Below are positions 6,001-52,513 of a DNA stretch of 64,000 nt, one piece after another. The DNA is from Psammoneis japonica (taxonomy: Eukaryota): assembly GCA_008632985.1 (NCBI GenBank), contig QPGO01000192.1, positions 62,001 through 126,000 of the forward strand, given 5' to 3'. Within the stretch, counting starts at the first letter, position 1, and each line of letters opens with the position of its first letter. Both the position numbers and the translations under genes were made by a program. The notes under the pieces were generated by a model, which saw only the letters and a program-made list of their open reading frames with translations, made no database searches and was not told where the DNA came from.

Positions 6001-6316
6001 CACTCTCCATCGTGAGTCTATGCGTCGACCGTTGTCGTGTGCGCGCACACCCGAAGTCTCCTCATGGACTCTCGCGGAAGTAAGACGGACGATGTACCAG
6101 GGTCGTATGTAGGCGATTTGTTACCGTGCCCTCCTGGTATGTTTCGTGTAGAATTCTCCGTAGAAAAGTTTTTTGCGTATGTAGAAACATACGGGGATTC
6201 CGGAGGCATCGTAACAAACCGTCCGTCTGACTTCCGCGAGAGTCTATGAGGAGACCTTCGTGTGCGTGCGAGCGCGCGCGAAGAACGGTCGACGCATAGA
6301 CTCACGATGGAGAGTG
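6001..6316. mobile_element. MITE, 316 bp, ~100-bp TIRs, 9-bp TSD
   Basis: Left end CACTCTCCATCGTGAGTCTATGCGTCGACCGTT is the exact reverse complement of 6284-6316; perfect direct repeat GTTCATGGA at 5992-6000 and 6317-6325. Confidence 0.92.
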
Positions 6317-6458
6317 GTTCATGGAGGCGCACCCCTGTGGTAGGGGAGAATATGGTGATGTCATGGTTACGTGGCAGTTTATATCTTATTCATTATATTT
6401 TTGTGTAAATGTCCTCACATTTATTTATGCATTTGTACACAAATGCTAACAGCAGCAG

Positions 6459-8610
6459 GAAAAATCCTGAACCACATTCTCCCCTGAAACTCCAACCACC
6501 AAAAACCGAGGGGTCGGAAGCGCACTTTTGGGAGCTCTTTTTCTCCGCACAAAAAACACGCGTCGACTCGACCATGACGACCTCCCATTCTTCGTCCCCC
6601 ACACCACCTGATGCATCCCCGCCTGCCATGTCTGATGCGGCAGTCCCTCCTGCATTGGCCGGTGCCGTCACACCCGCTGTCGTCACCCAAACACAGCCGA
6701 TTTGCCATCCGGAGGATTTGGGCTTCTGTTCGCCGGATCCTGTGCCTAAAACACAAACACAGCGCCGTGATTGGTCTGCTCCTGTCATTGCGTCCCCGGA
6801 GAAACTGGATTCTCGTTCGCATCGCCGTGTTGTGGAAGGTGCTGATGAGCCTTCTCTCAAACGGTCTGGGGTGCAGCTCCGAAACCAGGTCAAAAAACAA
6901 AAGCAACAAACCGACGTCAAGGTTCAGTGGGTGTGGCAGAGGAGCATCTATGACAGGAGGTGTGGTGATGACCTTTCTCAGGATGATTGTTCCTGAGCAG
7001 AACCTTGTCCATCTGGAGGTGATTGAGACTCACCCAGAGCCCAGCGGAACCAATCGGAGCCAACAACAAGTGTCAAGATGAACCGCAGCAACATGTGAAG
7101 GAGGACGCAGCTGATGGAGTGCGGGCAGAGAAGGTGCCGGCATGCAAAGTGGCAGCATGGCTGTCGACAAGGCACTGGTTTTGAAGGTCCAACAGTGACA
7201 AACACAGTGAGCATTTGCCAAAAGCACGTTGCTGTCTGCCTCCATTTTGGCAACATGCAAAAACAGCATGTTGCACATCACATGCAGAATTCAAACGGCG
7301 AGAGTGGCCTCTTGTGGAATTGCACACAATGACCTGGTCCTGGAAAACAGAGCAGTGTCCAAGTCACATGCACCATTTGAAACCTTGCCAAGTCGCCTGC
7401 AAACAAATGCCAGTTCGCTGACCTCTCCAACTTGAAACTAAAAAACTGTGAAAGCATGCCTGCCACCCAATTGTTGTCAGGTTTCTAATTTACAGAGAGC
7501 TGCATGATGTGTCTGTGTGTTCTAAAGATCAGACTGCACTCGAGAGCTGACCAAGAGGCACCATTCATGTCCATTGATGTGTCGTCCATCAGCAGGCCGT
7601 GGTTGCGTGGGTTTCCTGGTCCGCTGTCATCCGTCATCCATTGTGTTCCTTCCAAAGCAAAAACAACAACAGCATCAACAGCAACTGCAGCAGCAAGGGC
7701 AGGATCAACAGTGTCGGGCATGCCAGGGGGCCGAAATGCAGGTGCGGCGTTGGAATTCGTGACAGCATCTGTGGGAGGCGGTGGGGCGAGAATGAAAGAA
7801 GTGTGAGTTACAAGCATTTCGTTGTGGACGTCATTGGCAAAAGACAACAACAGTGTCAACAGCACCTGCGGCAGTGAGGGTGGGAGTGACAGCATCGGGC
7901 ATGCCAGGGGGCCGAAACGCAGGTGCGGCATTGGAATTCGTGATGGCATCTGTGGGAGGCGGTGGGGCGAGAATGAAAGAAGTGTGAGTTGTTGGCATTT
8001 CATTGTGGACGTTGTTGGCAAAACACAATGACAGCATCAACAGCACCTGCGGCAGCAAGGGCAGGAGCAACAGTGTCGGGCATGCTGGGGGGCCGAAACG
8101 CAGGTGCGGCGTTGGAATTCGTGACAGCATCTGTGGGAGGCGGTGGGGCGAGAATGAAAGAAGTGTGAGTCATTGGCATTTCATTGTGGACGTCATTGGC
8201 AAAATGCAATAACAGCATCAACAGTGCCTGCGGCAGCAAGGGCAGGAGCAACAGCATCGGGCATGCTGGGGGCCCGAAATGCAGGTGCGGCGTTGGAATT
8301 CGTGATGGCATCTGTGGGAGGCGGTGGAGCGTGCAAACAACAGTGTGAGTTTGTAGCATCTTATTTTGTACGTGTCACACCCACGAGAACCGGAACAATG
8401 ACATCACCTGTTGCATCAGTGTTGTTGGCAACGGTGTCAGCAGGATCGGCATCCTGGGAAGGCGATGGGGAAGAACCACGAGGCATCATCATGGTCGAGT
8501 CGACGAAACGCGTGTTTTTTGTGCGGAGAAAAAGAGCTCCCGAAAGGCGCTTCCGACCCCTCAGTTTTTGGTGGTTAGAGTTTTAGGGGAGCTGTGGAAC
8601 AGGAATTTTC
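6459..8610. mobile_element. Degenerate long-TIR DNA transposon (Mutator-like organisation), non-autonomous
   Basis: ~130-bp imperfect inverted repeats (6459-~6590 vs ~8480-8610) starting GAAAA(A/T)TCCTG; each TIR ends in an inward-facing ...GTCGACTCGACCATG; no TSD found. Confidence 0.75.
7650..8330. repeat. Tandem repeat, 181-bp unit, ~3.7 copies
   Basis: GTGGGAGGCGGTGG recurs at 7771, 7952, 8133 and 8314. Confidence 0.92.
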
Positions 8611-9030
8611 ACTTGTGGAACATGCACATCCGTGTGGACATTGACATTAAAACTCAACGCACGGCGAAGCCGTGCACGCACAACCACGCACACACACAGC
8701 TCCCCCACCACAGGGGTGATGGAGGCGTGGTCTGCAGCAGAGGTGAGATGCAAGATGCCCGAAGCATCACAAGCAGCAGGCGGAGGCCAGACGTTGTTTC
8801 CGCGGCAAAGTCGGTCTCGCTCTACCAGCCACACACGCGCAGCCAGGATTTCAGCCACCTCCAACAATCAACAGCTCCGGCCATTTGACATCTGCTTTGC
8901 ACCGACATGGAATCTCCTGCAGAAGTGCATGACCTTGCATGTGGTGCACAAGCATTTTGATGATCCTTGTGTTTGTAGAGTGCAAATGAGCTGATTGCAA
9001 GTGCACCGCCTCTGCAGGGGATGGTGAGAG

Positions 9031-9592
9031 AGTCCAGCGAGAAAGTTTGCATGACCCCCCAGGAACGCAAGGGAAACAAGTTGTGTGGTCAGCAGAAATG
9101 CAGTGAAAATGTTTGCACCCCCAAGGAACCCCCGCGAAAAGTTTGCATTCCCCCAGGAACGAACCCCCGTGAAAGTTTGCATTCCCCCAGGAACGCAGTC
9201 GCGGAGGAACCACCGAGAAAGTTTGCAGCCCCTGCCCAGGAATGCAGTCGCAAGGAAAACTTTGTGCAGCAACCCCCAACCCCGCCCAAAAATTTTCATC
9301 CCCCAAGGAACTCCGGTGAGAAGTTTGCAGCCCCCCAGGAACGCATTCGCGAGAAATGGCATCAGGGTCACAGTGGAAAACTTTGTGTCCCCCCAGGAAC
9401 CCCGTGAGAAAGTTGGTGTCCCTCGAGGAACCCCGGCGAGAAAGTTTGTAGCCCCCCATGAATGCAACCGCAAGAAGTTTGTCATCAGGAATCACAGTGG
9501 CACTCTCCATCGTCCGTCACGATGGAGAGTGTCACAATGGAGAATTTGGCATCCCCCCGCCCAGGACCCCCGCGAGAAAGTTGGCATCCCGT
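9031..9592. repeat. Array of degenerate ~30-bp units (CGCGAGAAAGTTTGCA...CCCCCAGGAAC), probably transposon subterminal repeats
   Basis: More than a dozen same-orientation copies of GAAAGTTTGCA / CCCCCAGGAAC. Confidence 0.75.
9501..9531. mobile_element. 31-bp minimal derivative of the 6001-6316 MITE family
   Basis: CACTCTCCATCGT-CCGTC-ACGATGGAGAGTG; flanks TCACAGTGG / TCACAATGG form a 9-bp TSD with one mismatch. Confidence 0.8.
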
Positions 9593-10825
9593 GAATGGCA
9601 CTGCTGGCAACCACCAGACTACAGAGCTGAATGTTGCATGTGGGATTCAATGGATGTGATGCAACTGTGTGCATGTGCTCTTTAATTGGTGTCTAAAAAT
9701 CTTGTTCAAAAATGAGAATGACCCTCACCAAAAATTCGACGCGAAAAACGACACGGCCGTGGCGACAAAAGCTGCTCGAGTTGATCCCACAGTTTGACAT
9801 GCTAGAAAACCAAGGCATGAATTGATGCATCTTGTCAATTGGTTGTTGCACTTGCACAGTGCACATGACAAAAACAATCCCCTGCAGAAACCCATGCAAA
9901 TTCTGCACAAAAATGAAATCTCCAATCAACGACCCTGTCACAAACGGTGACCGGCAATGCTGCACAAACAACCTCAACAATCAACCAACATGTCACAAGG
10001 TTTGACAGACAATGAATGAGATGACCACACATCAACAAAAGTGCCACACCACACAAACGACAATGACGGTGAGCGGGTCATTGTCGACACAGCAGATTTG
10101 TGTGACTCTGATGGACACAGATTGAGAATTTCATGCTGTGGGGTAAAAGTGAAGACACACGGGCAGACAAAAAAAGCACGACCTTCAGTCATGCATGTCA
10201 GAGCATGCTTGGAAGAGAATGTCCAGGGAGAGCAAAGTGACAAAAGAAGCAAAAGCGGCTTTGCAAGAACAGCTCAAAAAGTGGTCGATTTTTGGTCCAA
10301 AAAAGACGGGGGGTTGGCTGCCCCGCAACAGACAACCATTGCAATCTCTGTGTGAAACAAGGAAAGAAACCTGATTTGGTGTTCCTCCAGCAAATTTTCT
10401 GGAGGGTGGCATTTTTCTCTGCATGCGGTTCTGTGGGGCATGAGACTCCTCATGAAAGAAAGGAACAACCTTGAGCAAATCATGCTGCAGTTGCTAAGAA
10501 TTGACAAAGTGCAACAGAAAAGTGTTGTTGTGGCAATCAACAGGAATCTAGAAATTGTGAGGGTTGCTCTGCACCACCCACCAATTGGGCAACAGTGGTG
10601 GTCTTCACCAAATGGTCCCAAAGCTTGTTTTTTGGTGACAGCATGGCCAGAATCACTCAGTCCCCTTGAGCTGACACCAGCCCCAGTTGGGTCAGTTCAA
10701 CATGTCCTTTGCCTTCTTCATTGCCGCCCTGTTCCAGGTGCAATCCAAAATGTCAAATCGGGGTGGGCAAAACCCCTCCATTTTGGAGAGGACAATCCCG
10801 GCTTGTCCATTTTGGACAGGCCAAC

Positions 10826-13800
10826 TCACCACAGCATGTGGCAAGTCAGTTCTCGGAGCTTTGGTCCAGGCACAAGTTTGGTCAAGACATCCACTAGATT
10901 TGTGCGTCTGTCCTCCCAAGCAATCTGCACAACACCTGCAGTGCCTGTGCCTCACGCGTCCAGTGACAAGCAATGACACTGTGCTTCTTTTTGAAAGTTG
11001 ACTCTGGTCATGTCAAGTTCTTGAACACAGCCTCATTGTCACAGAAAACATTGGCAGGTCCCTTGACTGGGGTTCCTCCCATCATTCAAAGCTTGTGATG
11101 CAAGGCTTCAATTTGCTCCACCGCAGCTTTCATTGCAACAAATTCCAGCCAAACATGGATGACTCCATGGCATTCTGCCATTTGGAGCACCACAGAATTG
11201 GCGCCCATTGCATGAAGATGATGATCCCCATGTGGGATTGTTGCATCACACAACAACCAGCATGATCTGCATCAAAGAAGCGTGTGGCAGTGACACCATT
11301 GCTCCATGCCTCAGGGACATCCCTCGGGACAGCTTCAGCTGCCCCAGGACAATGTTCCAACCAGCCACACTTCTGAAAGGGAGATGGGTCAAAGGTGGGC
11401 TCAGTGTCATCAAACACCATGTCACAAACTTTGCATGTGCTTTCAGATGCGCAAAGATGTGAAGCACCTCATCCAAGTGACTGACCCTTGGTGCCGCCAG
11501 GTGCAAGGACATGAGGGACATGGCAACTGTCACATCAACCCGGCCCAATTCCACCATCCAGCACAAGACACTGGTGAGCCCCTCATGATGACTTGCCCTC
11601 TGGGCATCCAATTCAGAGAAATGTCAAGTTCTGGTCTGTGTCCCGAGCTCAATGGAGTTGAAGCCTTTGACCTGAGGCTTCAGCCTGCTTGGCCAAGCTT
11701 GAATTCAACATTGGCAGTTGCCCTCTTGACATGCAAGTCTGAGGACAATGCCCAATGTGTCTCACCATCTGAGTCAGACAGCTGGCATTTGCAGATCTGT
11801 GTGCCAAGGTGCTCTTCCAGTTCCTTGACACTTCCTTCCTCAAGCCCACAATGAGATGCCATGTGGTCCACAAACATCTGAGGGTCATGAGAGACTGCTG
11901 ACAAGTCATCAATGCAAACAAGTGCACATTCCCAGCACTTGAAGCCATCCAGCTTGACCGCCTTGTGCATCCACACATTGGGGTCTCCCTTGCTAGATTG
12001 GAAGCCCACCTTGCATGGGGTTGCCACCATGTGGTCTTGAAACCCAGCACCTGAGCTGTTGAGTCCATGTGGCACTGGCTGCTCCTCATTCTGCTTTCCA
12101 AATTCCAGACCAGCAGCAGCACAGCAGCATTCCTTGGTCTTGGCATTTAAATGCACATTCTGGACATCTGCTGCACACATGACATCCAAATTGTTCAAAG
12201 CCACGATCGCAAAGGCTGTCCTGACACCATCATGTGTCACAATGCCAGAGCAAGTTGACTCTTTGGGCGGCTCCATCTGATGACCTCCAGCTGCACAGCA
12301 GGCTTTCCTGGTCAAGTCGGTCTTGATGTCAAATGCCATGTGCTGGCACTTGATGTGTTTGAACCTGACTGGGATGGAGTCATCATCTGAGAATTTGAGC
12401 GCAGGGATGAGGTTCTTCATCTCTTTCTTGACTGCCTTCATCCAAAGGTCTGGCCTGTTTTCTGGTCAATGGCCAGAGCTTGCTGCACAGTCTTTGGGAG
12501 TTCAATCCCAAACTTGAGGGTGCACTTCCAGCACCTGGTCTTGACCTTCATGACCATCCTGGCATGTCGACATGACACGACATGCACCCACCAGTTAAAG
12601 GCTGGTTCACTTGCAATCTTGTTTGAGACCACACATTCAGCCACCTGTGTGGGAAAGGATTCCTTCACCTTGGCCAGTGGCATCCAGTCCATGGTGCTGT
12701 CCTTCTGCTCCACTTGCAGGTCCCATCCAAAAGTCATTCGTCTGGGCCTGCGAGTGCTGTTGAAGGTGGCGAAGCAGCCATCATCCATCTTGATGGCTCG
12801 TGCATCACTTCAATGACCTGTTCTTGTCACCTTGACAATTTGGCAAGTCCTGTCTTTGTCATCAATCTGAGAAAAGATGTTCTCAGCCACAGTGTTGGCT
12901 GCAAAGGCATCTGTGGATCCATCCGGGAACTCCGCTTCACACAACCTGGAATCCAACATGGGATTGGAACTCCCAGCCGCAATCGGCACTCTGTCTGAAT
13001 CTTGTTTGCAACTCTTGACCTTCACATGTTTTAGCTCCCCACCCCTTGGAAGCATTGTCTCAGCTGTGATGCATTCATCCATCTCCTTGGGTGTCTGTTC
13101 ATCTGCCTTGATGCAAGACAAGTCCGGTTCAAATGGTTCTCCATTCTCACGCCATCCTCAAAGAGATCGTCAGGAGGACTTGGGAGCATGGCATCATCCC
13201 TGTCCTTGTCCTCACCCAGCTTGAGGGAGAGCACCGCGTCCACAAGCTCCAAGCAATTCCGCTTTGCGTTGATGTTTAAGAGTCATCCTTGGCAAGAGCC
13301 CACACATCCTTGTGAATGATGGGTCCACCTGACTCAGGCAGGATTGCAAACGCCATGTCATCTGCACAGCTTTCTGCAACATCTGACCAGCACCCGATGC
13401 ACTTCCTCCTTTCAAAGGGAAATTCTGCCACAGGCATCATAAAGTGCACTGGCTGGTGCCAGTCAAAGAGGGCATGAGCTGAGACGTCTGGCGTCAAACC
13501 CATGACATCCTCTTTTCTGGGACCCTGCCATGTGTTTCTGGATGATCAGAGGCATTGAGCCTCCCAGCTGCCATTGCCCAGCACTTGGCACAGCAGGACC
13601 AACAGTGTCTGGGCGCATTCGTGCGCCGCACCACAACTCTGACCTTCCTTTTGAGTTCTCGAACAGAAGCTTTGACCAAGTTCTGCCATGGACTGCAAGG
13701 TCCAGTTGTGCCTTGCTTGATCTTATGCTCCTTCACAATTTCCTCAGTGTGCCCATCAGGGGAATTCCTGCATCATGGATGAATGACATCATTGCATCTG

Positions 13801-16795
13801 GATGATCCACCTTTGAGTTCCAGGGGCAAAAGTGATCACAACCTTTTTCATTCATGAAAATTGATCCACCAAAATGTCCCCGTGAGAATTGACTTGACCT
13901 TAGAAAACATCTGGTCAGTGTAAAACCTGTCCTTCACACCAGGGAACTCAAGCCAAGGAGCCTTCTTTTGCACCTTTGTTTTGGACAGTGCGCAGACGTT
14001 CCTGACTCCAGCTTCAGTGATCACCTTCAAGGTGTTTTTTGTGGCAGTTGGGCCCATGCCCCATCTCCTGGATAAAATCTCGGGAGTCAGTGTGGACTTG
14101 CTCTTAGAAGTGGGTGGTGCAAACATGCACACACGCTCTTTGCCATCATTGTGCTCATCATTTTTGCATTTGTTGTGTGGCCCGCCCCCTTTCACATCAA
14201 GGTGGGAAACAGTTGCCACAGATGCCATGCGTTTGTGCAATGCAGAGCCGTTGCCAGCAGCGGCGATCTCTTCCGGGCAGTCAAACCCATCACTGTGCAG
14301 CCGGATTGCAGAAAAGCATTGTGCCTCATTCGTCCACCCATGCTCCCCCTTTGGGCCAAGCCCCAAGGATTGAGATGAACCAGCAATGGTGTTGAACTTT
14401 GACTCAACAACATCTTCCTGCTGGGGAAACAGGTCTGATTGTGGGCTCCATTGCATGGTTGATGTCAGCTCTAGATGTGGCAGTTCCTCCAGGTCTTTGT
14501 CAGTGGGTTTGCAGTTTCAAAACCAGACATGATCCCTTTCAGTCAGAGTGGGTTTGGACATTTGAAGTCTGGGAATGACATGGAGTGGGAGCTTGTGCTC
14601 TCAAATTGTTTTGGGGTGTCATCCACAGTTGGGTCATTGGCGCGCAATTGGCTGGGACACATCAGCAAATTTTTTGCATGGTCCCCAAAACACATGTGGC
14701 CTCATGTCTGATCAGCAGGTGTGGTTGACCTGTGGATGGGTCAGTCCAAGCAGTGGCAACTGATTGGATTGGGACATTGCGGGGCTGGTTTGTTGCACTT
14801 GTCTGAGCATGGTCACATGGCAACAGTGTGACTTGGGTCCAAGAAAGGTGCACAGGCTGAGCCAGCAATGCATGTGTCCATGTGCAAGTCAAGCTCACTG
14901 CACAATGTCTCATAAAAAGATCCAGCAGCAACTGGAGCTGAGGCACACATCAGCGCGCTGGCAAAGGACATTGATGTGAAACCAATGGGAGTGGTGCCGA
15001 CAGCATTGCCAGATGAGTCAGATGAGTTTGGGCTGTCATTGTCATCAGATTGCACTGCAAGAGTCCTCTTGCTCATTGGTGCAACCAACCACTCCTGTCT
15101 GGATTGCTCCTTCAAAGGTTTGCATTCAATCATGCCCTGCTCAACCAAAGGTTTGGGCTTGTGGACCACCCTTCTGAACAGCTGCCTTCACACCCTGCTC
15201 CTTGGGTGCAGGTTTGCCATCAGCAACAGGCTTGTCAGGCTCAGGAGGGTTGCTGGTGGAGACCTTGCTGACTTTCCTGGTGGCACTGTCCTCCTCCTCG
15301 GTGTCAAGGGCTGCAGCCTTGCACTTCCATTTGGCCTTCTCCTTCTTCTTTTTTTGCAAAGCTCGTTGACCTTAGCATGTTCTTCTGGCTCAAAGGCAAG
15401 CCATTCCTCCTTGGGATGGTGACCAGCCCCAATCCTGGGCTTGTCCTGCTTCTTTTTTCTTTGAGGGTTGCCCCTCTTCTTGGGGTCCATTTCGCATTCG
15501 TTCCAAACTGCACCAATGTGGTGCACTGTCACTCCAAGTGGTTCTTGGAATTTTCCGCCAAGGTCTTCATGTGCTTCTGGCAGAGCTCAAAGCTAGAGAG
15601 CTTGGCGTCATCACCATCCACAACTCTCTTGCCAGTTTCCAATCGGGGGTCAGCAATCCCCTTCAGGAAGTCGGAGACCTTCTTGGTCTCAGCCACCAGC
15701 TCTCCCATGTCAAGGAGGTCATCATGAGCCCTCTGGCCTCTGGTGTTGTTGGACACACCAGCTGAAGGTGCAGCAACCTTGTCCAGTGCACTTTGTGGCA
15801 GCCATCTGAGCATGCATGCAATTCTTCCAAGCAGCAGTGGCAGAAAGGCGTCGCGACCATTCTGGGCACAGTTGAGTGGTTTGACAAAGGCCCACCTGGG
15901 TCCTTTAACAATGAGCTCCTTAAGCCCATCATGTGTGCATTGATCATCTGTCATGCATGCTTGTCTGTTGTGCTTGGCCGTTGCAATCAAGTCCTTGTCA
16001 ATGGCATCACAGTCAGCTGCACAGATCTCATCAGTGACACCCGACACTTCGCGAACGATGCACAGCAGCAGCACCCCAGTCACAGCATTGTGGTGGTGAT
16101 GCAACTCTGTCTGGAACAATTCCTCCCACTTGACAAAGTCATGAACCTGGGAAAGAGGTGTGGCCTTGGGAGTGTCGTCCTGCTGCTCCTGGTTGTCCTC
16201 CTGCTCCTGCCTGCGAACATCGTCAAACTCAGCAAGACGGTCCGTCCAAGTCTTGACAATGTGCCCCCAGCAAACATTTGGGCCTGCAGCTTTCCCTCCC
16301 CCCTTGCTTTCCTGTGGCACAACCACGCATGCAGGGCCTTGAACTTCCCAACCGAGAGACATGGGAAATTGACGTCATCATTGTTGGAACTGTCCTTCCT
16401 GAGTTCTTTGATCATTTTTCATCAATCTCAGATGACAGCGGCACTTGGTGCAAATCGGCGGTGGCAGTGAAACCTTGGGTGCTGCACAAACCCTGGTGCA
16501 TTTCCTGCACAGTTTTAAAGAGTTGCCTCTGGAGGGCCACAGCTGGAGAGAGACAGATCGCGGAAGCCAAGCAAATCCTTGGTGGATGGGACAACCCCCC
16601 ACTTGCTCGTGCAGAGACGGGGGAGAGGCACGAGGCACAGACCACGGCTGCGCCGAAATTTCTGGCTGTCACGTTGTGTTGTGTAGTCCACCTGCATGTG
16701 TTGTGTGAAGGGCCAGACGAAGTGCAAACTCTAGAGCAGATTCCACTCTAGCAGCTAGAGTCCTGCCCAACGCGAGCACAACATCACGTCGAACA
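10826..16795 (-). mobile_element. Ty1/Copia (CoDi-type) LTR retrotransposon, heavily mutated gag-PR-IN-RT-RNaseH
   Basis: Minus-strand order: gag-like (16362-15529); PR 'ELDLHMDTCIAG' (~14890); IN 'YTDQMFSKVKS' and 'GPCSPWQNL..RELKR' (13930-13640); RT 'DVQNVHLNA' and 'VCIDDL' (CIDD at 11905-11916); RNaseH 'DADHAG..SHMGII..ILWCSKWQN' and 'KKKHSVIACH..RE'; stop at 10826-10828. No LTR pair identified; the 16795 boundary is tentative. Confidence 0.92.
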
Positions 16796-16897
16796 AGCTT
16801 CATCTGGAAACTGGCGCCGCGCGAAGCGGTTCCGTCTGGACTTCGTCAGGGTGCTGCAAAAAACACTTTTTGGAAAACATAAAAAAAAACGCACACC

Positions 16898-18270
16898 ATG
16901 ACGAGCGCCGTCGACGCGTCGTCTTGCAGCTCCACTGAAATGACGCTTGCAGCTCTCACACATGACACACATGATCCAAGAGTGTTCAAGTGACTGTTGA
17001 ACTTCCAAGATTGTTGAGAGATGGCACCGTCATCCAATGGTGCACAGTTGAATGGGGTCACCCGATGCGACGCACCAAATGCTGTTCCATCGTACAATCG
17101 CACCAAAGAGAGGCAAACAATGCTGATTGATGCCACAGACACCTTGTCAATCGTTGCTGTGCTCAAGTTGGAATGTGATGGAGGCGCAACACCACGCCAT
17201 GTGGCTGGTTGTGACACGAGTTGGCGCACCGTTTTCAAGAAGGTTCAAAGTTTTGTTGAGACGGATGCCGCCAAGCAGAAGCTGGAGAAAAAACACTGGA
17301 GTGAGATGCCGCGATGGGAGAAAAACACACATGAGCAACAACTTTGTATTTTGATGGATCAAAAGGCTGCAATTGAAGTCAAGCTTGCTCCAGTTGACAA
17401 CGGAGCTACGGCATTGCCGCGAGCAGTTTCACCCATGCCGGGTGCCACTTCGGAACAAACCACACGTGTTGGAGGAAGTCAATTGGCTAGAGAGTCGCCA
17501 CAAGAACCTTCTTTGAATGACACTCCACCCAATGAAAAGCTCACATCACCCACTTCATCGGAATCATCCAGAAATTTTTTTAGAGGCACTGCGAACAAGA
17601 AGCGTCGCATCACACCCCCAGCGCCAGATTCCGAAGAGCAGGCAAGTGCCGCCGCCGATGATGGTGTGGTGCAAGTTTCAATCTGAAGGCCACATCACTT
17701 CTTTCTCCAGAAGAGGAGCGCATGGCACCAGCAAAAAAGGCTGAGAATGTGAAAAAATCAACCGTCAAACCGCACCCAGTTGGAACGAATGCTGCCACGC
17801 TGTGTCAACAGGCAGACAGACACGTCATTGAATCGATCCACGGATTGTTGAGGAAAGTGAGGACTGCCATTGACACTTCACATTGTCCAGATCAGCTTGA
17901 TGATGAGCCTTGTGTGCACACTGCATGCTTGGTGCTGAATGAAATTGAACCAACCGACATTGACAGTGGACGATGCAATCCCGCTGACCTTCCGGCAAAG
18001 AAACCTGAGTTGTTGGCACTGACGCATTCGAAGCATGACACAAAGCCAGTCATGACAGCATTCAAGACAGTCACTGGGAGTGAAAGCCAGTGCAATGACT
18101 CTTTTCATTTTCACCCACCAGTTGCGGGTGAAGACGGTTTGGTTTCGCCTGCCATCGAAGACTGCATTGAATCTTTCAAGAAGAGTCATGCGAAACCGTC
18201 CAAAACGCCTGGAGACTGCTCTGAAGTTGTCGAAGAGCTGCGGCTAGACTGTGTGACTAGTCTGTGCTAG
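16898..18270 (+). pseudogene. Element ORF A, unknown protein, probable intron 17664-17710
   Basis: ATG 16898 is in frame with ORF 17021..17686 across two TGA codons (likely former CGA); a 47-nt GT..TTTCTCCAG intron joins it in frame to ORF 17722..18270. Confidence 0.55.
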
Positions 18271-18339
18271 CCACTGCTTTACGCACACCACATGTGAAGA
18301 ACATTTCAACAAACAAAGCATCACACCACTGACTTAGAA

Positions 18340-19806
18340 TCAAAACCATGCTGGAGACTGAGAAAATCCCGTCAATCCATGCACAGTGGATTGATTGGAC
18401 TGAACAGAGAAAGCTGCTGAACTCTCTCGGGATGCAGGCGAGGGTGGCACAGCCGCAGCATGATCAGCAGTTTGCCGCTTGCGTGTGATCGCATGCTTGC
18501 GAGCAAATTTAGATCGGACACATTCATTTGCGGATGGGATGTCTTGGTCAATCTCTGCTTTCAGTCTTGCTTCGAATTTGGCAAATTCGCCAGCTCTCTC
18601 CGACTGTCGTTTCGCCTTAAACTCCTCCTTTCGAGACTCCGGCCATTCTGGATCCATCTTGCGCATTGCTTGCCTCACCAAAACAATTCTGTGGACTTTT
18701 GGGGGCTTGTTCAAACCCCCTTTGACAGGTTTCGGGTGCGCCGCCACAATTCCTTGCCACTCCGACGGCTCAAGCTTTGCTGCCAGATGTGCTGGCTCCT
18801 TGTCAAGCTCTGGCACTGTGCAGACAAATTGCTTCATCAAGAAGCTGCAGTCCTCTGAGCAGCATCGCTTCAGCTCATCCTTGAGTGCTGTGTCCTTCTT
18901 GCCTGCTTCTGGCGGCATCAGTGAAAGATCAACTCCGTCTTCACCTGTCTCTGGACGTGCACAATCAGATGGATCGCCATTTGCAATGAATTTCTCAAAG
19001 TGGTCCACGAATCGTGCAGGCATGCCATCGTCCAGCATTTCTCCACACCCAAGAGCATGGAGACATCTGAGGAGAATGAACTCCTGATTGCATGCAAGCT
19101 TTGTTAAAGTTGACCGATTCAACAGCTCTAATGAATCAAACTTTTTCGTCGGGCAAAGGGTGATCAGGATGGTGTGAAAAAACTTGAAGATTTTCTCGAG
19201 CGCTTCTTTCATTTCGCTCGTCCAATCATCCTGCGAGCAAGTGGGTAGAGCCATTGAAACAACCGCAACATCACCATCCTCTTTGCATCCAGCAAAGGTC
19301 AGTGAAGAATAATCCTGAATCCTTGATGACGCGATGTGAGTGTTGTCTCCGAAGAGTTGGTCCAGTGTTTCCTTGTTTCAGATGAAATGATGCACCGGAT
19401 CCATCTTGGAATTGAAAGGAGTGATTTTGTGACAGCTGGGTTGTTGAATTGGTTTGACAGTGCCATTGTGACGTTCAAAACGGACTGCATGTATTGCACG
19501 TTCCGTTGTTTGGCTGTTGCATGCCCCGCAGCACAGCGTTGCGTCACAACCTCTCAGTGCGACAGTGCTGCCGAAGCAACTGATGCATGTTGCACATTTG
19601 TCAGCACAACCCAGCTCATGATGGCTTTCAATTGAAGCACATGTTGCATTCTCACAACATGCACACGTCTTCTCTGACGAATAAAGCGATCCGAGCTCAC
19701 ATTCGACAGTCACCGCGTTTGACCGAGACGAACCACCGCACACTCTCCGAGCTCTTTTCTTTGCTGACAGTGACATCCTGTGAAAAATTTGAAGATGCAG
19801 CATCAC
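18340..19806 (-). pseudogene. Element ORF B, possible transposase remnant
   Basis: ORFs 19378..19806 and 18340..19254 are one frame interrupted only by TGA at 19378-19380 (likely CGA); contains 'NSQTTERAI', reminiscent of the S/T-x-x-x-ER motif around the catalytic Glu of DDE transposases. Confidence 0.5.
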
Positions 19807-20028
19807 TTGAGTGTAGAAGAAGAAACGGTTCCTTTAGTATGACTGTGATAAGCCTTGTAGTTATTGTGAAATAAACGTCCGCAAGACGGCTCTCGTCATG
19901 GCGTGCGTTTTTTTGATGTTTTTCAAAAAGTGCTTTTTTGCTTTTTGCAGTACCCCGACGAAGTCCAGACGGAACCGCTGCGCGCGGCGCGCGCTAGTTT
20001 CCAGATGAAGCTGATAGGCCTTATCATA

Positions 20029-20334
20029 CTACAAATTGCAAGACAATTGCGCGATTCACGTGCCCGAAGGTGGAATATCGTTGCCCGAAGCAACATTCTC
20101 CCTTCGCGCAGATGTCATTTCTACGTATGATGTGGTATCAAAATTTTCATTTTGGTCGTCTAAATCGTCCCAGTCATTTCATCAAATGACCTTGTGGTAC
20201 TCTCCTACGTGATCTACGCAAATCGGAGCTTCGGGCTGGCTGGTACATTTTCTACAGGCTCTACGTGCGCGAAGCTCGAATTCAACAATCACCCTTCGGG
20301 CACGTGAATCGCGCAATTGTCTTGCAATTCGTAG
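20029..20334. mobile_element. MITE with ~42-bp TIRs and TA TSD (Tc1/mariner-like)
   Basis: CTAC(A/G)AATTGCAAGACAATTGCGCGATTCACGTGCCCGAAGG at the left end and inverted at the right end; TA at 20027-28 and 20335-36. Confidence 0.8.
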
Positions 20335-20421
20335 TACGACGTGTTGATTGAACAGCCAGAACAAAAAGCAAAGCGAGTCGTCCACAACGTTGGGCAACAA
20401 AAAAATTCTCCCATCAAAACC

Positions 20422-23400
20422 ATGAATGAAAATTTTGGCCCAGTCACGCCACAACGGGCCAACGGTCGGCCGATAAACGCGGTCAGTGGACACAAGCGAA
20501 ATGCTGAAGCAGCGATACTCGATGATGCGCAGCTGTGTGCTTCTCCCGGTGCTCAGCCTCGCAGTCCTGGCATGACGGATCTCATTCATTATGAAAGAAA
20601 GAGATCACAAGACGAAGCAACGAACGCTGCTCCTCATTTTGAGTCCGACAGTAGTAGTGCTCGTCGTGAATCCGGGTTTTCGGGGGGAGTTGACGAAGCG
20701 TCGAGCGTTCAAAGAGACAGTGTCGATGGGGTCGCGTTGACTGAGGAATTTTCGACGCCGCTTGTTGGGAAACACGGCCACTATTGGTGGACGAGGTACC
20801 GTGCAGTATTGAACGCGGATAATTGGAGCAAACTCGCAAATGAGTTGAAGGTCACGCCCCATATGAGGGACGTCGTGGTGCCGGAGCCACCTCCTTTTAT
20901 TGAAGAGAGAGCTACAATCGACGAGGTTCCGTTGCCGGGGGCAGCTGTGAATGAAAGTTTTGACGAAGATGCGCTGCTTACTACTGACAATCTCAGTTCT
21001 GACGACAAAGTTTTCTACGATTCTCTACCGAATGAAGAGATGAAGAATTACTACCTGCGCGGCAAGCTGCGAGCGACGATTGAAGAGCGAAAAGCTGAGA
21101 TTGCAGAGCGAAAAGCTGAGATTGCAGAGCGAAAAGCTGAGATTGCAGAGCATCAAAGGAAGGTTGCAGAGCGAAAAGCTGAGCGAGAGTTGCACCAAAG
21201 GAAGATTGAGAAGCACCTCGTTGAAATCACGGTGGTAGCAACTAGTGTTGAGACGTCGCTACTTGCATTGTCATCCCTTTCACAAGCCGAAGGGACAGTG
21301 GCCAGAGATACAAAGGATGCAGAAGAAACACTCAAGAAACGGAGAATGAAGGAAAGTCAAGCTGAGGAGTTTGTGAAGGATGCTGACCCAATCGTACAGG
21401 AGCCAGCATCGCTCTCCGAAACGTACAATTCGGTTTTGGAAAATGAAAGAGAGTTCTCAAGCACTTTTGACCGAGAATCATTGAAGCACTTTGATGACGA
21501 AAAACAAAACCCGCTGCTTCGACTGAGCAATGCTTATGCTGCGGCTGTAAAGTCGACTGCGAATTTCACGAAACGACAGGAGTTACATGGCGATTTGGAA
21601 GGATACAAGATGCGCATTGAGAAGACTGTCAACAAGCTGCAGACTGAATTCAAAAAAGCAAGAGAAAATTCTGAACATGATCCTTCCTTCGAAGCGGATC
21701 TCGTGTTCCCTGGTCCAACCAGCCAAGAAGTTCATGGCGTCCAGCCAGTTTTCAAAGCGCTCCTCGAAGCCATCGGTGACTGTTGTCAAGTGGCATATGA
21801 TGGTAAGACGCATCCGTCCTCGCCACCGAACATTGGTGTATCGGAACAAAAGGAGTTGTATGGAAATGAGAAGCGACGAGGGCGTCGCTGTGATATTGCG
21901 GTTTGGAAACGTGGGAGACACGTTGTTGCACTGCTGGATGGTTTCATGGAGGTGACGTTCGAGATCAAGCCGGGACAGCGCATTGACAAGACAGTGCTAG
22001 ACATGCTGTGCGAAGGAAAATTCCAGGGTCTCAGCCACGTAGCTAAGGCGCTACTACATTGCTTGCGCTTCGCGGATGGTGCAGGTGTTCCGTCGCATGC
22101 AACGTCCATAACTGGTTCGCTAAGTCACGTCGAGATCATCCAACTCTGTGTAGTTGATCCAGGGAAACCAACCTCTCGCGTCGAGTTACGCTCATCCGGA
22201 CCATTGCCACTTTTGCCAAAAGATTGTTTTCGCAAATGGTTTGATTCAGACAATTCGCGGCACTCAGAGGCCGTTGACACCATGGCGAACCTTTTGTACG
22301 GAAAGGACGACAACGGCATGGACGAGAAAGGTATTCCACTTGGCATCAAGGGTCTCTATACAATGATGATGTGCCCTCGTCGTGAGCTCATTGGTCCCAA
22401 TTGGGAAAAAGTCTCGGGTTCGCTTGGCGAACTACTTGGTGTCGGTACGTTTGGCATGGTTTTTGCTGTCAACGGAAGTGATGATGCTGTAGTCAAATTG
22501 TCCAAGACCTCCCTGTCTCGCTACATCAAACGGGAAGCCGCAATTTTGAAGCTGTTATCGTCATGTGACGATAGACCAAATAGTGTAGGGCTACCTCACT
22601 TCATTGCATGTGGGCTAATGGAGGTAAATGTTGGGGGCGTGGCGTTTCAGTTACCCGCACTTGCAATGCAACCACGGTGTCAAAACATCTACAGTGTGTG
22701 CTCCGGTTGGTCAGACGAAAAGCGCTTTAGTGTCCTGAAGAAAATCCATAATGGCATTTTGAGTGCTCTGTGCTTTATCCACAAGCAGCATAATATTTGC
22801 CACCGTGACGTCAATGACACAAACATACTTTTGCGTTATCACACGGAGACTGATGAATGGAGTGCTGTACTGATTGACTTCAGCGTTGCCGGCCCGATGT
22901 ACGAGAATGTCAAGGGCTTTGTAGGCACTCCGACGTTCACTCATCGTGAAGTGCATAAGAATTCCGAATGGATATCTGCCCCACAGTATGACGATACAAA
23001 CCTTGGTTTCACATTAGTTGTGATTCTTGAGGGTGGCGTCGTTCCTTGGAAGGGTTTGAGTGACAAGGGCCCACAGAAGGGCACTGATGTGTATGATAAG
23101 CGAATTGAACAGGCGAACCTTTGTTTACGGGAGAATGTACAGAACAAGAAACTGGACGCCGATCTAGCGAAGTGCATCAAGGATCTGTTCCTGAAGGATA
23201 AGGAAAAGTTTCGAAGTGCTTGTGGCTGCAAAAAAACACAATGCAGAGGCGGCCGTTGCAGTTGCAGTAATACCGAAAACGGTAGCTCCATTTTGTGCGC
23301 ATGTTGTTATGACAAGCAAAAGGCGGCTTTCTCCTGTTTAGGCAAGCACAATGGTCCGCAGAAGGGGAGCGTCGACGACGTCAAGTTTGATGCCCCTATC

Positions 23401-23433
23401 GGAAGGATTACAGCTGTTGACCAGCAAATTTAG
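20422..23433 (+). CDS. Crinkler/RHS-like protein: coiled-coil + PD-(D/E)xK REase-like domain + protein kinase + Cys-rich tail
   Basis: Intact intronless ORF; heptad repeats AEIAERK; 'RRCDIAVW...TFEIK'; kinase motifs GVGTFG, VVK, HRDVNDTNIL, LIDF, GT; C-terminal CGCKKTQCRGGRCSC..CACC. Confidence 0.8.
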   Translation: MNENFGPVTPQRANGRPINAVSGHKRNAEAAILDDAQLCASPGAQPRSPGMTDLIHYERKRSQDEATNAAPHFESDSSSARRESGFSGGVDEASSVQRDSVDGVALTEEFSTPLVGKHGHYWWTRYRAVLNADNWSKLANELKVTPHMRDVVVPEPPPFIEERATIDEVPLPGAAVNESFDEDALLTTDNLSSDDKVFYDSLPNEEMKNYYLRGKLRATIEERKAEIAERKAEIAERKAEIAEHQRKVAERKAERELHQRKIEKHLVEITVVATSVETSLLALSSLSQAEGTVARDTKDAEETLKKRRMKESQAEEFVKDADPIVQEPASLSETYNSVLENEREFSSTFDRESLKHFDDEKQNPLLRLSNAYAAAVKSTANFTKRQELHGDLEGYKMRIEKTVNKLQTEFKKARENSEHDPSFEADLVFPGPTSQEVHGVQPVFKALLEAIGDCCQVAYDGKTHPSSPPNIGVSEQKELYGNEKRRGRRCDIAVWKRGRHVVALLDGFMEVTFEIKPGQRIDKTVLDMLCEGKFQGLSHVAKALLHCLRFADGAGVPSHATSITGSLSHVEIIQLCVVDPGKPTSRVELRSSGPLPLLPKDCFRKWFDSDNSRHSEAVDTMANLLYGKDDNGMDEKGIPLGIKGLYTMMMCPRRELIGPNWEKVSGSLGELLGVGTFGMVFAVNGSDDAVVKLSKTSLSRYIKREAAILKLLSSCDDRPNSVGLPHFIACGLMEVNVGGVAFQLPALAMQPRCQNIYSVCSGWSDEKRFSVLKKIHNGILSALCFIHKQHNICHRDVNDTNILLRYHTETDEWSAVLIDFSVAGPMYENVKGFVGTPTFTHREVHKNSEWISAPQYDDTNLGFTLVVILEGGVVPWKGLSDKGPQKGTDVYDKRIEQANLCLRENVQNKKLDADLAKCIKDLFLKDKEKFRSACGCKKTQCRGGRCSCSNTENGSSILCACCYDKQKAAFSCLGKHNGPQKGSVDDVKFDAPIGRITAVDQQI

Positions 23434-23876
23434 GTCCGCGAACTTTACGGTAGACATACTCGTAGTATAGTGACAATTACAACAAGAACTGCGACATGAC
23501 TCTGTGCCATTGTGACGATCTTATGTCTTCAAAGATGTAATGCTTATTACTATGACTTTTCTCAAGTTGCCTTTGTGCCCTAAATGGGGTAAACTGGTCA
23601 CGCTGTCAGAGACTAGATAGTCACTCGATGTGTTAGTGAATAATTGTTTTCTTCTTGCAGCGCCCCGTTCTGCGAGAAAGTAGAAGTAGCTGATGACACA
23701 GTGCTGCTATCGGCCCGCCGTGGTACTGTCACACGTGTAATTCTAAAATCAACTTTTTCACTAAACCTCCCCACCGACCTTTTGCAGTAATAATAACTGT
23801 ACAAAGAACAGTACAGTACCGGCAAGCCAGGAGAAAAAGCGGTGAAGTCTACTGTATAGCTCCTCTTATTTTTGAT

Positions 23877-24430
23877 CTATTTCTTTTTGTTTCTGCTCTT
23901 GAGCTCTTGAGCTTTCTTCTTGACAGCATTGAGCTGACCCAAAAGAGTATTGGCCTTTACAAATCGGCCCCTGCGATCATGCAGATGTCGTTGCTTGTTG
24001 TTTGCTGTGTGATTGATTAAATGTTTGAAAAGGTGCTCTGGCTCCAAGACAAGGATTCTTTGCAAACCACACGAATACTTGATTGTGCCAACTGAAGACC
24101 TCCGGACCACCACTCTACATTTCGTAAATCTAAACCGTCTTACCCATAGTGTGGTGCATCATACGGTGTTCATGATGATTGTATGGGGTTGCAATCATGC
24201 TTCTCACGCCTTCGGTCAAAACTGGAAGAGCCACATTCATAAGTCTATCTGATCCTCTTGAAGTGGCGCGTCTACCAGTATCATACTCGGAAAGAGTTGT
24301 TACAATGTAGAGTAGGCGGAGTGGACCATCGTCGGCTTGATTTTGTGTTGTGCTCCTCGAGTTTGTGGTGTTTGCACTTGGAGCGACTTGCCCGCATTGA
24401 AGAAGTATCACTGACACAGAAATCCATAGT
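23877..24430 (-). pseudogene. Internally deleted, frameshifted paralog of the 25476-26924 gene
   Basis: 5' part 'LYIVTTLSEYDTGRRATSRGSDRLMNVALPVL' is fused almost directly to 3' part 'NVEWWSGG...HTANNKQR..VKANTLLGQLNAVKKKA'; roughly 0.9 kb of the middle is missing. Confidence 0.88.
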
Positions 24431-25475
24431 CTGAGGAGCACATTTTTCTCAACTAGAGATTTGTGACGTTCCCACCCTGCTGACATGAGTGGTAAGCGAC
24501 AGCGGTTGCGCCGAGCCGTCATCCCATTGCCGAAAACTCTGAGACTCTGAGTTGGAGAGTCCCAGCAGTCCCAAGTCATCAGTCACAGACAGCAATTAGA
24601 GAGTTGCTACTTTAGAGAGTAGCCTACCTTATTACTGTAGCTGCTCTCTAGAGTCATAGCTCTGTGGATCGTCTGATACCTGGTACCGGTAGCGAGCAGG
24701 ATTAACTGTCAACTGTTTGTCGGCGAAGTTATGCAAAGAAACAGGAGCTAGAGAAGGCCGCAAGAGACGCGGCATGGGGTTCTAGCATCCGTGGGTTTGT
24801 ACGAAAAGCCTGGCATGACAAGTGCTTGTCAGACTCCGTTTTGCAAAATTAGGACTGATCACAGGCAACAGCGCTGAAGCAGAGGAGTCGCGAGGCTCGT
24901 GAAATTGATTTCCCTTTCATCACGGGCATTGGCACACTGTCCCACCGCACCAAATACTCCATGCTCATGCTTCATCCCTTGCGATACACCTACAGGTATG
25001 ATCCCAAAAGTAGAAACTGAGAACATTTCTCAAGGTGAGCTTGATACATCAAACCGGTCTCAGGTCAGAAAACTAGCACGTTGAAATTGATCCGCTGGAT
25101 GTTGTCATTCGCCAGAGGTGCTTGATGCTTGTTCTGTACAGTACGTCGTGCCAGTGGTTTCAGTTTTACTCCTTCTTCTGCCCTGCAAGAACTCTGAAAG
25201 CACCATCTCGCCACACCTCCTCTCCGACATGATTTGCATCATGAACAGGCGAACCAAAGCGCTTGGCAGGTTTTCACCAACCTCCTTTCAAGAGAGTCAA
25301 ACTTAAAAGACGTTCTTTTCCGTCAAGCGTCTTTGTGATTTGGGTTGACAGCAACAACGCAATTCTGCAACTCAGTAGTGTGTTGCTCCCGCACGAATCT
25401 CTAGTGGTTGCAATATGTTCGTTCGAAGGATCTGTCGTCGCGCAAACGTTGGTAGCGCGCCTTGTTCGGATATGC

Positions 25476-26924: not shown

Positions 26925-28140
26925 AGTGTTTCCTATTAGAAATGCGCAACTTGTATCAACCAATAGCATAGTGCGGAAGGAACGCCATTGTCAACAAGTC
27001 AAAACACAGAATCAATCATCCTCCGCCCTCGGCCCTCGCCCCTCGCCGCTCATCTGCTCGCGCTCGCTGCGCTGCGCTCGCCCAAATTTATCATTACGGT
27101 ATGCTAAAACTGGATATATATTTTTTAATAATTATCACAGCACAACAGCCTAAAGTAGAGGCTGAGCCCTGTGCGTTGTTGACCGCACGCCACGGCGATG
27201 GTCGCACTGCGTCGGTAGGCCTAGTTGAACCGGATGTTGCTCCTCTCTACTCTCTAGAGCTAGCTACTCTAGTAGTCGTAGTAGAGTAATAAGAGATCAA
27301 AGCTACTTTACTGTAGAGCTAGTCGCACCAACCGGCTCCCCGCTAGAGTTGCGAGTCGTCGTCGTCTCTAGCTACTAGCGGGGTAACACTTAGTAGAGCC
27401 TGAGCTTCACCAGAGTCATCATAACTGTGTAGACTGTAGATCGAATATTGTACCTCTATGGATACGGGATTACACTACTGTACTACCTGAGGAAATAAAC
27501 TGAAGGGAAAAGAAGAATTCTTGATCCGGACGGATTATCTTGGCGCCAAGAAAAGCCAGTGTTTTCGGATCTGGTGTTGGGATTCCAAAGTGTCTCAGCC
27601 CTATGACTTATGTCCTCGATATGTCGTACGAGAAAATATCCATTCTACGAAAGGTCGACGAAAATGCGCTTTTAAGTAAGAGTGTGGGAAAGACCCTCAC
27701 AACAGAACAACTTATGCCAGTTCCGGATCAGATCGCATAATCGTACACAACATTTATGTAGAAACTTCCTACACTCGATTCGATACAACATCACATCATC
27801 CCTACTCTAGCATTCGTAAATTATTAGAGCTAGTAGAGAGTATGGGAGTGCCCCAATCATGTTGGTTGAAATAAATGTTAGCAAAATTCTGGTCATTGGT
27901 TCATAAGACGAATGGTTCGATCTCCGAGAAATGCCACGGTCCCAAAATTCGTTAAATGGAAAAAGGGGAGAAGATCATTCTCCCGTAGAATTTTACGACT
28001 CACATTCGTTAAGACATTTTTCTCCTCCCATTGCCTCTCACAAAACAAAAAACAAGAATCGAGCCACAAACAGCTCGTTCGGCGAAGCATCCGTCAAATC
28101 TCACAAAAAGAGGCTCGAGTCAAATCTTGAGTGAGACAAG

Positions 28141-31525: not shown

Positions 31526-32149
31526 GCTCGGCGTCCGAGATCCCATTGATTGTGCTCGTATTACGTATTTTAGCGAGGTGTGTGGCTCGAGGTCAAGTCA
31601 GCCAGCAATAAATTGAGTGCCACCATGATACCTCTGTATTACTTTAGATTCCCGATACCCGAAGGAAGAAGCAAACGGGGCTTGGGTCCATTAAAAAGAA
31701 AAATAGTGTCCATGTTCTGTGAATCTTGCGCAAGATTGTGTGTAGTGAGTAGTAGCGTCGAATCGATCAATCTCAAATCCCTCGTATTTCATGAGTCTCG
31801 CTGAAATTTCCCCGAGCTCTGAAATAATCCTCTCATGACAAAAGCTTGCGTAACATTCTTAAAAGCTGTCAGAATGTGGAGGAGATAAACACGTCGAGCT
31901 ATGAGCTATCTATTGCTGTCGAACGCATCCTCCATCATGCCTTGAAATAACGCGGCTTGATGCTTGATCGGCGACGGGGATAAAAAAAACTCGACTCGTT
32001 CGACTAGAAATTGAGATTGTGCCATGGTCGAGAGAGCACCATGAGAAACGGGTCATCCTCTGCTGTTTTTAACTGTTTCATAACCTTGAGATAAACAACT
32101 AATTTTGCAGCCAAAATGTGAATCTTCCCAACAAATGCAATCTGATTTT

Positions 32150-35931: not shown

Positions 35932-35979
35932 TCATTTCGGGAGCAATGAATTTTCACATGCCATAAATCGGTGTAGCTA

Positions 35980-37400: not shown

Positions 37401-37409
37401 CTTACAATG

Positions 37410-45990: not shown

Positions 45991-45999
45991 CCCATGGAA

Positions 46000-52479: not shown

Positions 52480-52513
<34 letters not shown>

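Follow-up and report, generated by a model that had tools for sequence, protein, structure and literature searches.

Hypermutation directed at TpA dinucleotides has been described in the chlorarachniophyte Bigelowiella natans. In mutation-accumulation lines of this species, 231 of 302 single-nucleotide mutations fell in two integrated viral regions, which mutate at about 1000-fold the background rate, and the 231 were, with one exception, A to G or T to C changes, each of which lay on TpA (Mettrop et al., bioRxiv 10.64898/2026.01.13.699255). According to the accessible part of that preprint, the B. natans genome holds 124 clusters that are depleted in TpA and enriched in CpA and TpG, reverse-transcriptase and DDE domains are enriched among its TpA-depleted coding sequences, and an ADAT2-like deaminase is proposed as a candidate; the same part makes no mention of CpG, diatoms or flanking context (bioRxiv 10.64898/2026.01.13.699255). 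Here we describe the same signature in a 64,000-nucleotide stretch of DNA from Psammoneis japonica (contig QPGO01000192.1, positions 62,001 to 126,000; hereafter the window, numbered from its first letter), in which five blocks, containing among other things a Copia retrotransposon remnant and a satellite, have lost nearly all of their TpA. It is proposed that transposon and repeat DNA in these blocks underwent a nearly saturated hypermutation of TpA to TpG or CpA at the DNA level, overlaid by CpG decay, a reading to which we assign a probability of roughly three in four.

Target and products are the same in the two organisms, with TpA changed to TpG or CpA on either strand. As far as the accessible part of the preprint goes, both also appear to have foreign or mobile DNA as the target, reverse-transcriptase domains among the depleted sequences, and lasting clusters poor in TpA and rich in TpG and CpA. 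The hosts differ, a rhizarian there and a probable diatom, hence a stramenopile, here, and so do the targets, which are giant-virus and virophage insertions in B. natans but a Copia element, a fragment of a retrotransposon without long terminal repeats (non-LTR) and a satellite in the window. The TpA observed/expected ratio is 0.45 in the nucleocytoplasmic large DNA virus (NCLDV) region of B. natans and 0.05 here. De novo events are shown there only, whereas the co-occurring CpG decay, the T-A-pyrimidine context and the base-pair-sharp edges are described here only. The signature is therefore present in a second, different lineage, and what is new in that lineage is the retrotransposon and satellite targets, the near-saturation, the sequence context, the sharp edges and the CpG decay. 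An earlier note, made from this DNA alone, knew of no described diatom system of the kind; full-text literature searches, which turned up papers on fungal RIP and the one pertinent preprint, likewise found no such signature for diatoms, and this part of the statement stands, but the signature itself had already been shown in B. natans in a 2026 preprint.

Like fungal repeat-induced point mutation (RIP), the process leaves lasting mutations in repeated or mobile DNA, keeps to the repeat and abolishes its coding capacity. RIP, however, changes C to T (mostly CpA to TpA), which creates TpA and lowers GC, whereas TpA is destroyed here through A:T to G:C changes; with TpA at 0.05 of expectation, TG and CA at about 1.75 and GC at 0.50 against 0.48 outside, we exclude RIP as the process, since RIP generates TpA. 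Deamination of 5-methylcytosine (5mC) at CpG covers the CpG loss and about half of the TG/CA gain in the affected blocks, but it cannot remove TpA, and CpG loss is patchy where TpA loss is uniform. The earlier note already held that neither process explains the missing TpA. APOBEC3, acting on cDNA, and ADAR, acting on double-stranded RNA, share with the present case the use of hypermutation as a defence against mobile elements, but they work on replication intermediates and on one strand, while both strands, a satellite and a 3' pyrimidine are involved here. ADAR also favours a 5' U, according to the accessible part of the B. natans preprint (bioRxiv 10.64898/2026.01.13.699255).

Observed/expected dinucleotide ratios (obs/exp) were computed in 500-nt windows, and domain bounds were set by the spacing of consecutive TA. 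TpA obs/exp is 0.3-0.9 outside and drops to 0.00-0.2 within five domains, D1 to D5, which together make up 32,653 nt, the remainder being 31,347 nt. D1 (6449-19681) has 65 TA in 13,233 nt (obs/exp 0.08), with CG at 0.47 and TG and CA both at 1.65; D2 (32102-33447) has 2 TA and 8 CG in 1,346 nt, with TG and CA at 1.85 and 1.88; D3 (37403-40474) has 12 TA and 33 CG in 3,072 nt; D4 (45091-55952) has 19 TA (0.03) and 136 CG (0.21) in 10,862 nt; and D5 (56664-60803) has 9 TA and 44 CG in 4,140 nt. In total, the domains hold 107 TA (obs/exp 0.05), 628 CG (0.31), 3381 TG (1.73) and 3743 CA (1.76), against 1312 (0.61), 1698 (0.96), 2313 (1.18) and 2232 (1.14), respectively, in the rest of the window. 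At the rest-of-window frequency 1,367 TA would be expected in the domains, and the binomial log-probability of 107 or fewer underflows. Other dinucleotides shift little between domains and rest, and GC is nearly unchanged. Scaled to equal length, about 1,260 TA and about 1,140 CG were lost and about 2,390 TG+CA gained; because the excess matches the deficit, both palindromic pyrimidine-purine steps, TA and CG, have been turned into TG/CA. The TG/CA enrichment has two sources, TpA conversion and CpG decay.

The five TpA-poor domains reported in the earlier note are real, and our recomputed bounds agree with it within about 100 bp. Both stretches that it held to lack TA, 10897-11993 and a 2,274-nt stretch of D4 (52032-54305), are exactly TA-free. 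Its description of TpA loss stands, but it laid little stress on the strong CpG depletion in most of the same domains. Since TAA and TAG need TA, the depleted blocks are full of long stop-free frames, and 43 of the 73 open reading frames (ORFs) of at least 150 aa, as counted from the ORF list, start within them.

The clearest view of the ancestral sequence comes from D1, which contains a decayed Ty1/Copia polyprotein on the minus strand (10829-14899, hereafter the Copia remnant). Searched with ORF 11680-12465 (minus strand), phmmer found 38 longer proteins with RVT_2 and identities of up to 52%; of the Copia relatives among these matches, the one whose source is named comes from Fragilaria crotonensis. 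With these 38 homologues (P0121-P0158), tblastn aligned a nearly complete polyprotein, the remnant, collinearly, in at least nine frame pieces, with residues ~41-1398 of intact relatives that carry PF07727 (RVT_2). The window copy itself is below Pfam detection and self-BLAST found no LTRs for it; the intact relative P0122 gives an RVT_2 match of only 60 bits and an rve match that is weak. Ty1/Copia polyproteins belong to the RVT_2 family and have integrase ahead of the reverse transcriptase-RNase H portion; the collinear alignment assigns 10829-14899 to this group. Conserved columns were taken to be the 688 codons of the remnant with agreement among 70% or more of 10 or more homologues. Of the 27 conserved Tyr columns, one still reads Tyr, 14 now read Cys and 10 His, exactly what a change of TAY to TGY or CAY yields; of the 52 Arg columns, 19 are unchanged, and the replacements include 8 His, 6 Cys, 6 Gln and 3 Trp, the products of CGN to CAN or TGN. 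Most other conserved residues are kept at 53-94%, and Ile at 8 of 24 (33%), with losses mostly to Val, Met and Thr. In a leave-one-out control over the same 27 columns, each of the 38 homologues showed no Tyr-to-Cys and at most two Tyr-to-His changes. The conversion of Tyr codons to Cys or His, claimed earlier from single motifs, therefore extends to 24 of 27 conserved columns; among those motifs, the Copia YVDD does read CIDD at 11916, so that the catalytic motif is lost, and KPYS does read KPCS at 55703 in D4, where 9 of 12 homologues have Tyr.

Related elements retain TpA. We compared the remnant with 80 related Copia loci from metagenomes, the best 80 of 477 confirmed matches, a choice by which the sample leans towards intact copies. 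These loci have TA obs/exp of 0.48-0.94 (median 0.68) and a median CG of 0.96, and none has a 1-kb window with TA obs/exp below 0.25. Judged against them, the 4,068-nt remnant has 13 TA where 190 are expected, 60 CG (230 expected), 433 TG (304) and 472 CA (269), i.e. 347 TA+CG were lost and 332 TG+CA gained. The earlier note had seen a possible refutation in intact active family members that already lack TpA; this is not the case in the 80 environmental loci, whose TpA is normal. These comparisons show that the Copia family is not natively TA-poor and that the changes are mutations of a TA-containing ancestor.

Independent outcomes in repeat copies place the mutations on DNA. In D1, four satellite units (7657-8373) alternate among CA, TG, TA and CG at 13 dinucleotide sites: nine of the 13 carry both CA and TG across units, two still show TA and four show CG, and one site reads CA, CA, TG and TA across the four units. 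CpG is largely intact in the array, and therefore most of the alternating sites were TA. The two copies of a dispersed repeat, in D4 (47696-47992) and D5 (57639-57929), share 72% identity in self-BLAST, and CA/TG double changes are their main difference: 13 such sites occur in 303 columns, compared with a single one in the 834 columns of three control duplicates from outside the domains; a second control, the host 297-bp seven-unit tandem at 29159-31248, has no CA/TG alternation. Adjacent CA/TG double changes are unexpected from single-base mutation, but are expected if a palindromic ancestor was struck on either strand. The strands are symmetrical in the Copia remnant as well, Tyr-to-Cys and Tyr-to-His changes being about equal. 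The mutations thus acted on DNA, after duplication, independently in each copy and on both strands.

The TA that survive in the domains have a distinct sequence context. With host NTAN counts scaled to domain length as the expectation (R, purine; Y, pyrimidine; N, any base), survival is 4 of 399 expected (1%) for RTAY, 20 of 345 for RTAR and 16 of 372 for YTAY (together 36 of 717, ~5%), and 66 of 242 (27%) for YTAR, a distribution that departs from that of the host with a chi-square of 122 (P = 3.5e-27). A model in which the strands are struck independently gives a per-strand survival of 0.10 when A precedes a pyrimidine and 0.52 when it precedes a purine; its product predicts 0.052 for the mixed classes, where 0.058 and 0.043 were observed. 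The same pattern is found with the Copia relatives as baseline (0/61, 4/94 and 9/34). Residual CpG has no context dependence, at 0.34-0.37 in all four classes. We read this as a preference for three bases, 5'-T-A-Y, or just as well R-T-A should thymine be the target; strand by strand, T-A-pyrimidine is favoured about 3.5-fold over T-A-purine.

CpG loss and TA loss are distributed differently. TA loss is uniform in the domains and CpG loss is patchy: CpG obs/exp is still 0.4-0.8 in the stretches 6500-10000 and 16500-19500, and several edges retain CpG for 150-450 bp inwards although TA has already gone there. By analogy, the overall CG obs/exp of 0.31 and the 23 of 52 conserved Arg columns that now read His, Cys, Gln or Trp would be the usual outcome of 5mC deamination in silenced transposons. 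TA density shifts within ~20 bp at seven of the ten edges (D1 left, D2 left, D3 right, and both edges of D4 and D5); at the left edge of D1, the spacing of TA is about 20 bp as far as position -2, and the next TA follows at +298. We infer two processes, a slower CpG decay in element interiors and a faster TA process bounded by the element. One may speculate that such sharp edges point to recognition by homology or small RNA rather than to spreading chromatin.

The proposed course of events is that transposon and repeat stretches arose as DNA at or before these loci and were then hypermutated, TpA becoming TpG or CpA, i.e. A to G on either strand, strand by strand. A separate, slower and spatially less complete decay of CpG to TpG or CpA would have been superimposed. 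Both processes would strip Tyr and Arg codons as well as TAA and TAG stops, leaving the elements dead and unrecognisable to Pfam. The core of the earlier note, a process restricted to transposon and repeat DNA that drives A:T to G:C changes at TpA to near saturation, is upheld by the mass balance, the Tyr replacements, the CA/TG alternation and the paralogous contigs that keep TA (see below). As to chemistry and targeting, we infer, with odds slightly short of even, that the likeliest enzyme is, as also proposed for B. natans, a DNA adenine deaminase of the TadA/ADAT type, here specific for TpA and directed against foreign or repeated DNA, in which case adenine would be deaminated to hypoxanthine and read as G. 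The natural substrate of TadA and ADAT2 is U33-A34 of the tRNA anticodon loop, within U-A-C-G for bacterial TadA, and the 5'-T and 3'-pyrimidine context found here matches the U-A-C of the TadA substrate. The natural enzymes act on tRNA, however, and to our knowledge DNA activity is known only from engineered editors and from reports cited in the B. natans preprint. Deaminase families that are specific to stramenopiles and contain SAM and Tudor domains offer further enzyme leads; classes given for stramenopiles include CDD/CDA-SAM-Tudor and LmjF36.5940-like deaminases (PMC3239186).

Several alternatives to adenine deamination on DNA have to be considered. At a palindromic TpA, A to G on one strand is indistinguishable from T to C on the other, so the mass balance, the strand symmetry and the context fit a T-to-C change at R-T-A equally well. 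The agent could then be a modified T at (R)TpA, 5-hydroxymethyluracil (5hmU) or a base-J-like derivative made by a TET/JBP dioxygenase, that pairs wrongly or is turned into C by repair. Some protists do hypermodify thymine. 5hmU:A pairs are not known to be strongly mutagenic, however, and no feature of the sequence favours a modified T. The only experimental study of the signature, as far as its accessible part goes, argues for adenine deamination, which it likewise deduces, and we consider thymine chemistry unlikely. Editing of RNA or cDNA during retrotransposition by an ADAR-like or APOBEC-like enzyme, with integration of already-mutated copies, would account for the sharp edges (7 of 10 within ~20 bp), and two of the identified pieces are retroelements. 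Hyper-editing of the ADAR type would strike the transcript strand only and retroelements only, but here the strands are about equal (Cys 14, His 10) and adjacent satellite units took independent CA or TG outcomes; an affected satellite together with strand symmetry therefore disfavours editing of retrotransposon RNA. ADAR prefers a 3' G, in contrast to the 3' pyrimidine preference seen here, and the copy in which YVDD was destroyed has lost ~93% of its TA (13 remain where 190 are expected), which would be hard to achieve in one replication cycle. ADAR-like RNA editing, by a class of enzyme named in the earlier note, is disfavoured on these grounds, and we regard editing before integration as very improbable. 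A further candidate of that note, error-prone synthesis of the DNA polymerase eta type (WA to WG; W, A or T) in heterochromatin repair, agrees with the data to the extent that A to G at TA belongs to the WA signature, but it is contradicted by AA/TT, which are undepleted (obs/exp 1.20/1.24 in the domains against 1.14/1.14 outside), and by AG/CT, which are unenriched (1.04/0.99 against 1.00/0.98); because AA/TT are untouched, it is for practical purposes excluded. The same near-negligible chance is given to elements natively poor in TpA, owing to selection against TA or to a TA-poor donor, which would explain the composition itself and nothing more: Tyr codons always contain TA, the 38 intact relatives have 3.0-4.6% Tyr, and the 80 related loci have normal TA while the window copy is without the catalytic Tyr residues.

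A base-calling or assembly artefact, in which a modified base at TpA (and 5mC at CpG) is misread in heterochromatin, was judged against three sequencing runs (X1-X3) of one sample, whose k-mer contigs were compared with the window over 6001-26000. X1 contigs in D1 have a k-mer depth of ~55-59 and agree with the window at ~99.5%; one has 7 other letters and 2 gaps in 1,396 over 12087-13480, and the sections 14334-16020 and 16022-16514 have 7 and 4 other letters, respectively. Among the 40 listed differences from paralogous contigs, a biased sample of 858, the contig has CG where the window has TG/CA in 19 and TA where the window has TG/CA in 5, while TG stands against window TA in 1 and against window CG in 2, the other 13 being other changes; other copies in X1 thus keep TA or CG at sites where the window has TG/CA. 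Strand-conflicting miscalls would make CG at TA sites, yet CG is depleted, and the Copia remnant also carries frameshifts and changes outside TA and CG, as is typical of dead elements. The library type of X1 is not on record, and the run may be the assembly's own data, hence not fully independent, which leaves some room for an artefact; we nevertheless think it highly unlikely. This dependence, the biased sample of differences and the palindromic ambiguity of TpA also weigh against DNA-level hypermutation by A-to-G change as we read it, and so do further points. Only the saturated end state is visible in the window, de novo events having been seen in B. natans and not here. The Pfam and read-through searches found no transposon protein in D2, D3 and most of D4 and D5, and self-BLAST of the window detected few internal repeats and not one pair of LTRs. 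A purine precedes 8 of the 10 His outcomes and 6 of the 14 Cys outcomes, which is a trend only, and the excess of RCAR+YTGY over RTGR+YCAY predicted for the products is weak (a ratio of 1.35 in the domains and of 1.23 elsewhere, P = 0.07).

D1 is a composite of high-copy repeats including the satellite, the Copia remnant and a possible element bounded by terminal inverted repeats (TIRs). The satellite (7657-8373) consists of four tandem units of ~180 bp with 82-87% identity between units in self-BLAST, and its summed X1 k-mer depth is 6,300-7,500, compared with ~58 for single-copy contigs. The candidate TIR-bounded element (16796-20012) is a weak call with inverted ends of 117-129 bp (16796-16912 and 20012-19885, 83% identity) and no protein family from Pfam; one X1 contig links 16799 to 20365, omitting 3,565 nt, a junction that fits presence/absence of the element at 16.8-20.0 kb. 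The right end of D4 matches, in tblastn and at 55622-55864 (plus strand) only, the C-terminal domain of reverse-transcriptase proteins. A D4 read-through query (52403-55819, stops read as X) gave 523 proteins in phmmer at E<=1e-3, with all listed matches within query residues 1048-1139; no listed match fell outside its last ~90 residues and none upstream of 55622-55864, as expected for a 5'-truncated non-LTR element. Long matches to this region are proteins of 1,000-1,127 aa, and RVT_1 was found in 4 of 9 scanned; by this homology 55622-55864 is probably the 3' end of such a retrotransposon. Pfam assigned no family at E<=0.01 to 24 ORFs of the depleted blocks or to 12 read-through frames of D1, and none at E<=0.1 to 9 further ORFs, with two chance-level rows only (E 0.18 and 0.27); after the Pfam and read-through searches, ~18 kb of D2-D5 is without assigned origin.

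Host-type ORFs encoding a kinase, a sulfatase, a class-C G-protein-coupled receptor (GPCR) with a periplasmic-binding domain and a DUF3605 protein lie in normal-TA sequence, and the depletion appears to be confined to repeat-derived blocks: the Copia remnant, the non-LTR 3' end and the satellite are all in depleted sequence, as is one aminotransferase-like fragment inside D5. This host-type ORF fragment (60257-60694, plus strand, near the right end of D5) is similar to class I/II aminotransferases. Its best PDB match is 1x0m (E = 3e-4), and among 14 listed matches 10 are aminotransferases or related pyridoxal phosphate-dependent C-S lyases. Its conserved P-T-Y reads P-T-C; it could be a captured fragment, a pseudogene or a leakage of the process. 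The nearest proteins in a large database have 73% identity to the GPCR and 58% to the sulfatase. At least 7 of 101 GPCR matches come from diatoms (Cyclotella cryptica, three from Amphora coffeaeformis, Bacillariaceae sp., Thalassiosira profunda and Seminavis robusta), and the host sequence is probably a diatom nuclear genome.

Other features of the window were also recorded. Contigs of run X2 lie over the genes at 20-24.6 kb and cover the repeats little or not at all, and run X3 gave no contig over the section compared. In the kinase region (20379-24511), a long X2 contig differs from the window at ~3-5% of its letters and by several indels, and the depth of X1 is about double that of a single contig; this suggests a pair of diverged haplotypes or else a close paralogue. 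Around ORF 25476-26990, 23911-24411 is related to 25513-26894 by two short duplications that have diverged (76-81% identity) and that served as controls. The seven tandem 297-bp units at 29159-31248 have 92-94% identity and lie in an 800-aa ORF (29123-31525, plus strand) without a Pfam family. A direct repeat of ~360 bp (35971-36328 and 41403-41762, 87% identity, 5.4 kb apart) brackets D3 and has normal TA content and an ordinary substitution spectrum; the pair may be LTRs or a host duplication, and if they are LTRs, their sparing while the interior was mutated would be odd. Between D4 and D5 lies a 710-nt island (55953-56663) with GC 0.40, TA obs/exp 0.83, CG 1.48 and sharp edges on both sides, which is host DNA lying between a pair of insertions, or else a young insertion.

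With a second, distantly related lineage, what was a single-species curiosity becomes a comparative problem, in which gene families common to B. natans and this diatom, and absent from signature-free diatoms, become enzyme candidates; the T-A-Y context and the strand-wise kinetics provide a concrete substrate for enzymology. For diatom genomes, hypermutated transposons escape Pfam, and repeat content may therefore be underestimated. Loss of TAA and TAG leaves long spurious ORFs, from which gene finders are likely to call spurious Cys/His-rich proteins, and since the domains are GC-neutral, GC-based scans miss them. A natural DNA-directed A-to-G mutator would be of interest to both genome-defence biology and base-editing technology. 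A bolder and rather doubtful proposal is a defence enzyme present perhaps in much of the supergroup of stramenopiles, alveolates and Rhizaria (SAR), namely a natural TadA/ADAT-derived DNA adenine deaminase shared by diatoms and chlorarachniophytes that would recognise mobile or repeated DNA to within a few bp, guided by homology or small RNA and independent of cytosine methylation. If true, it would erase every T-A-Y adenine on both strands, and would mirror fungal RIP in the A:T-to-G:C direction, besides being the first counterpart in nature of the adenine base editors made in the laboratory.

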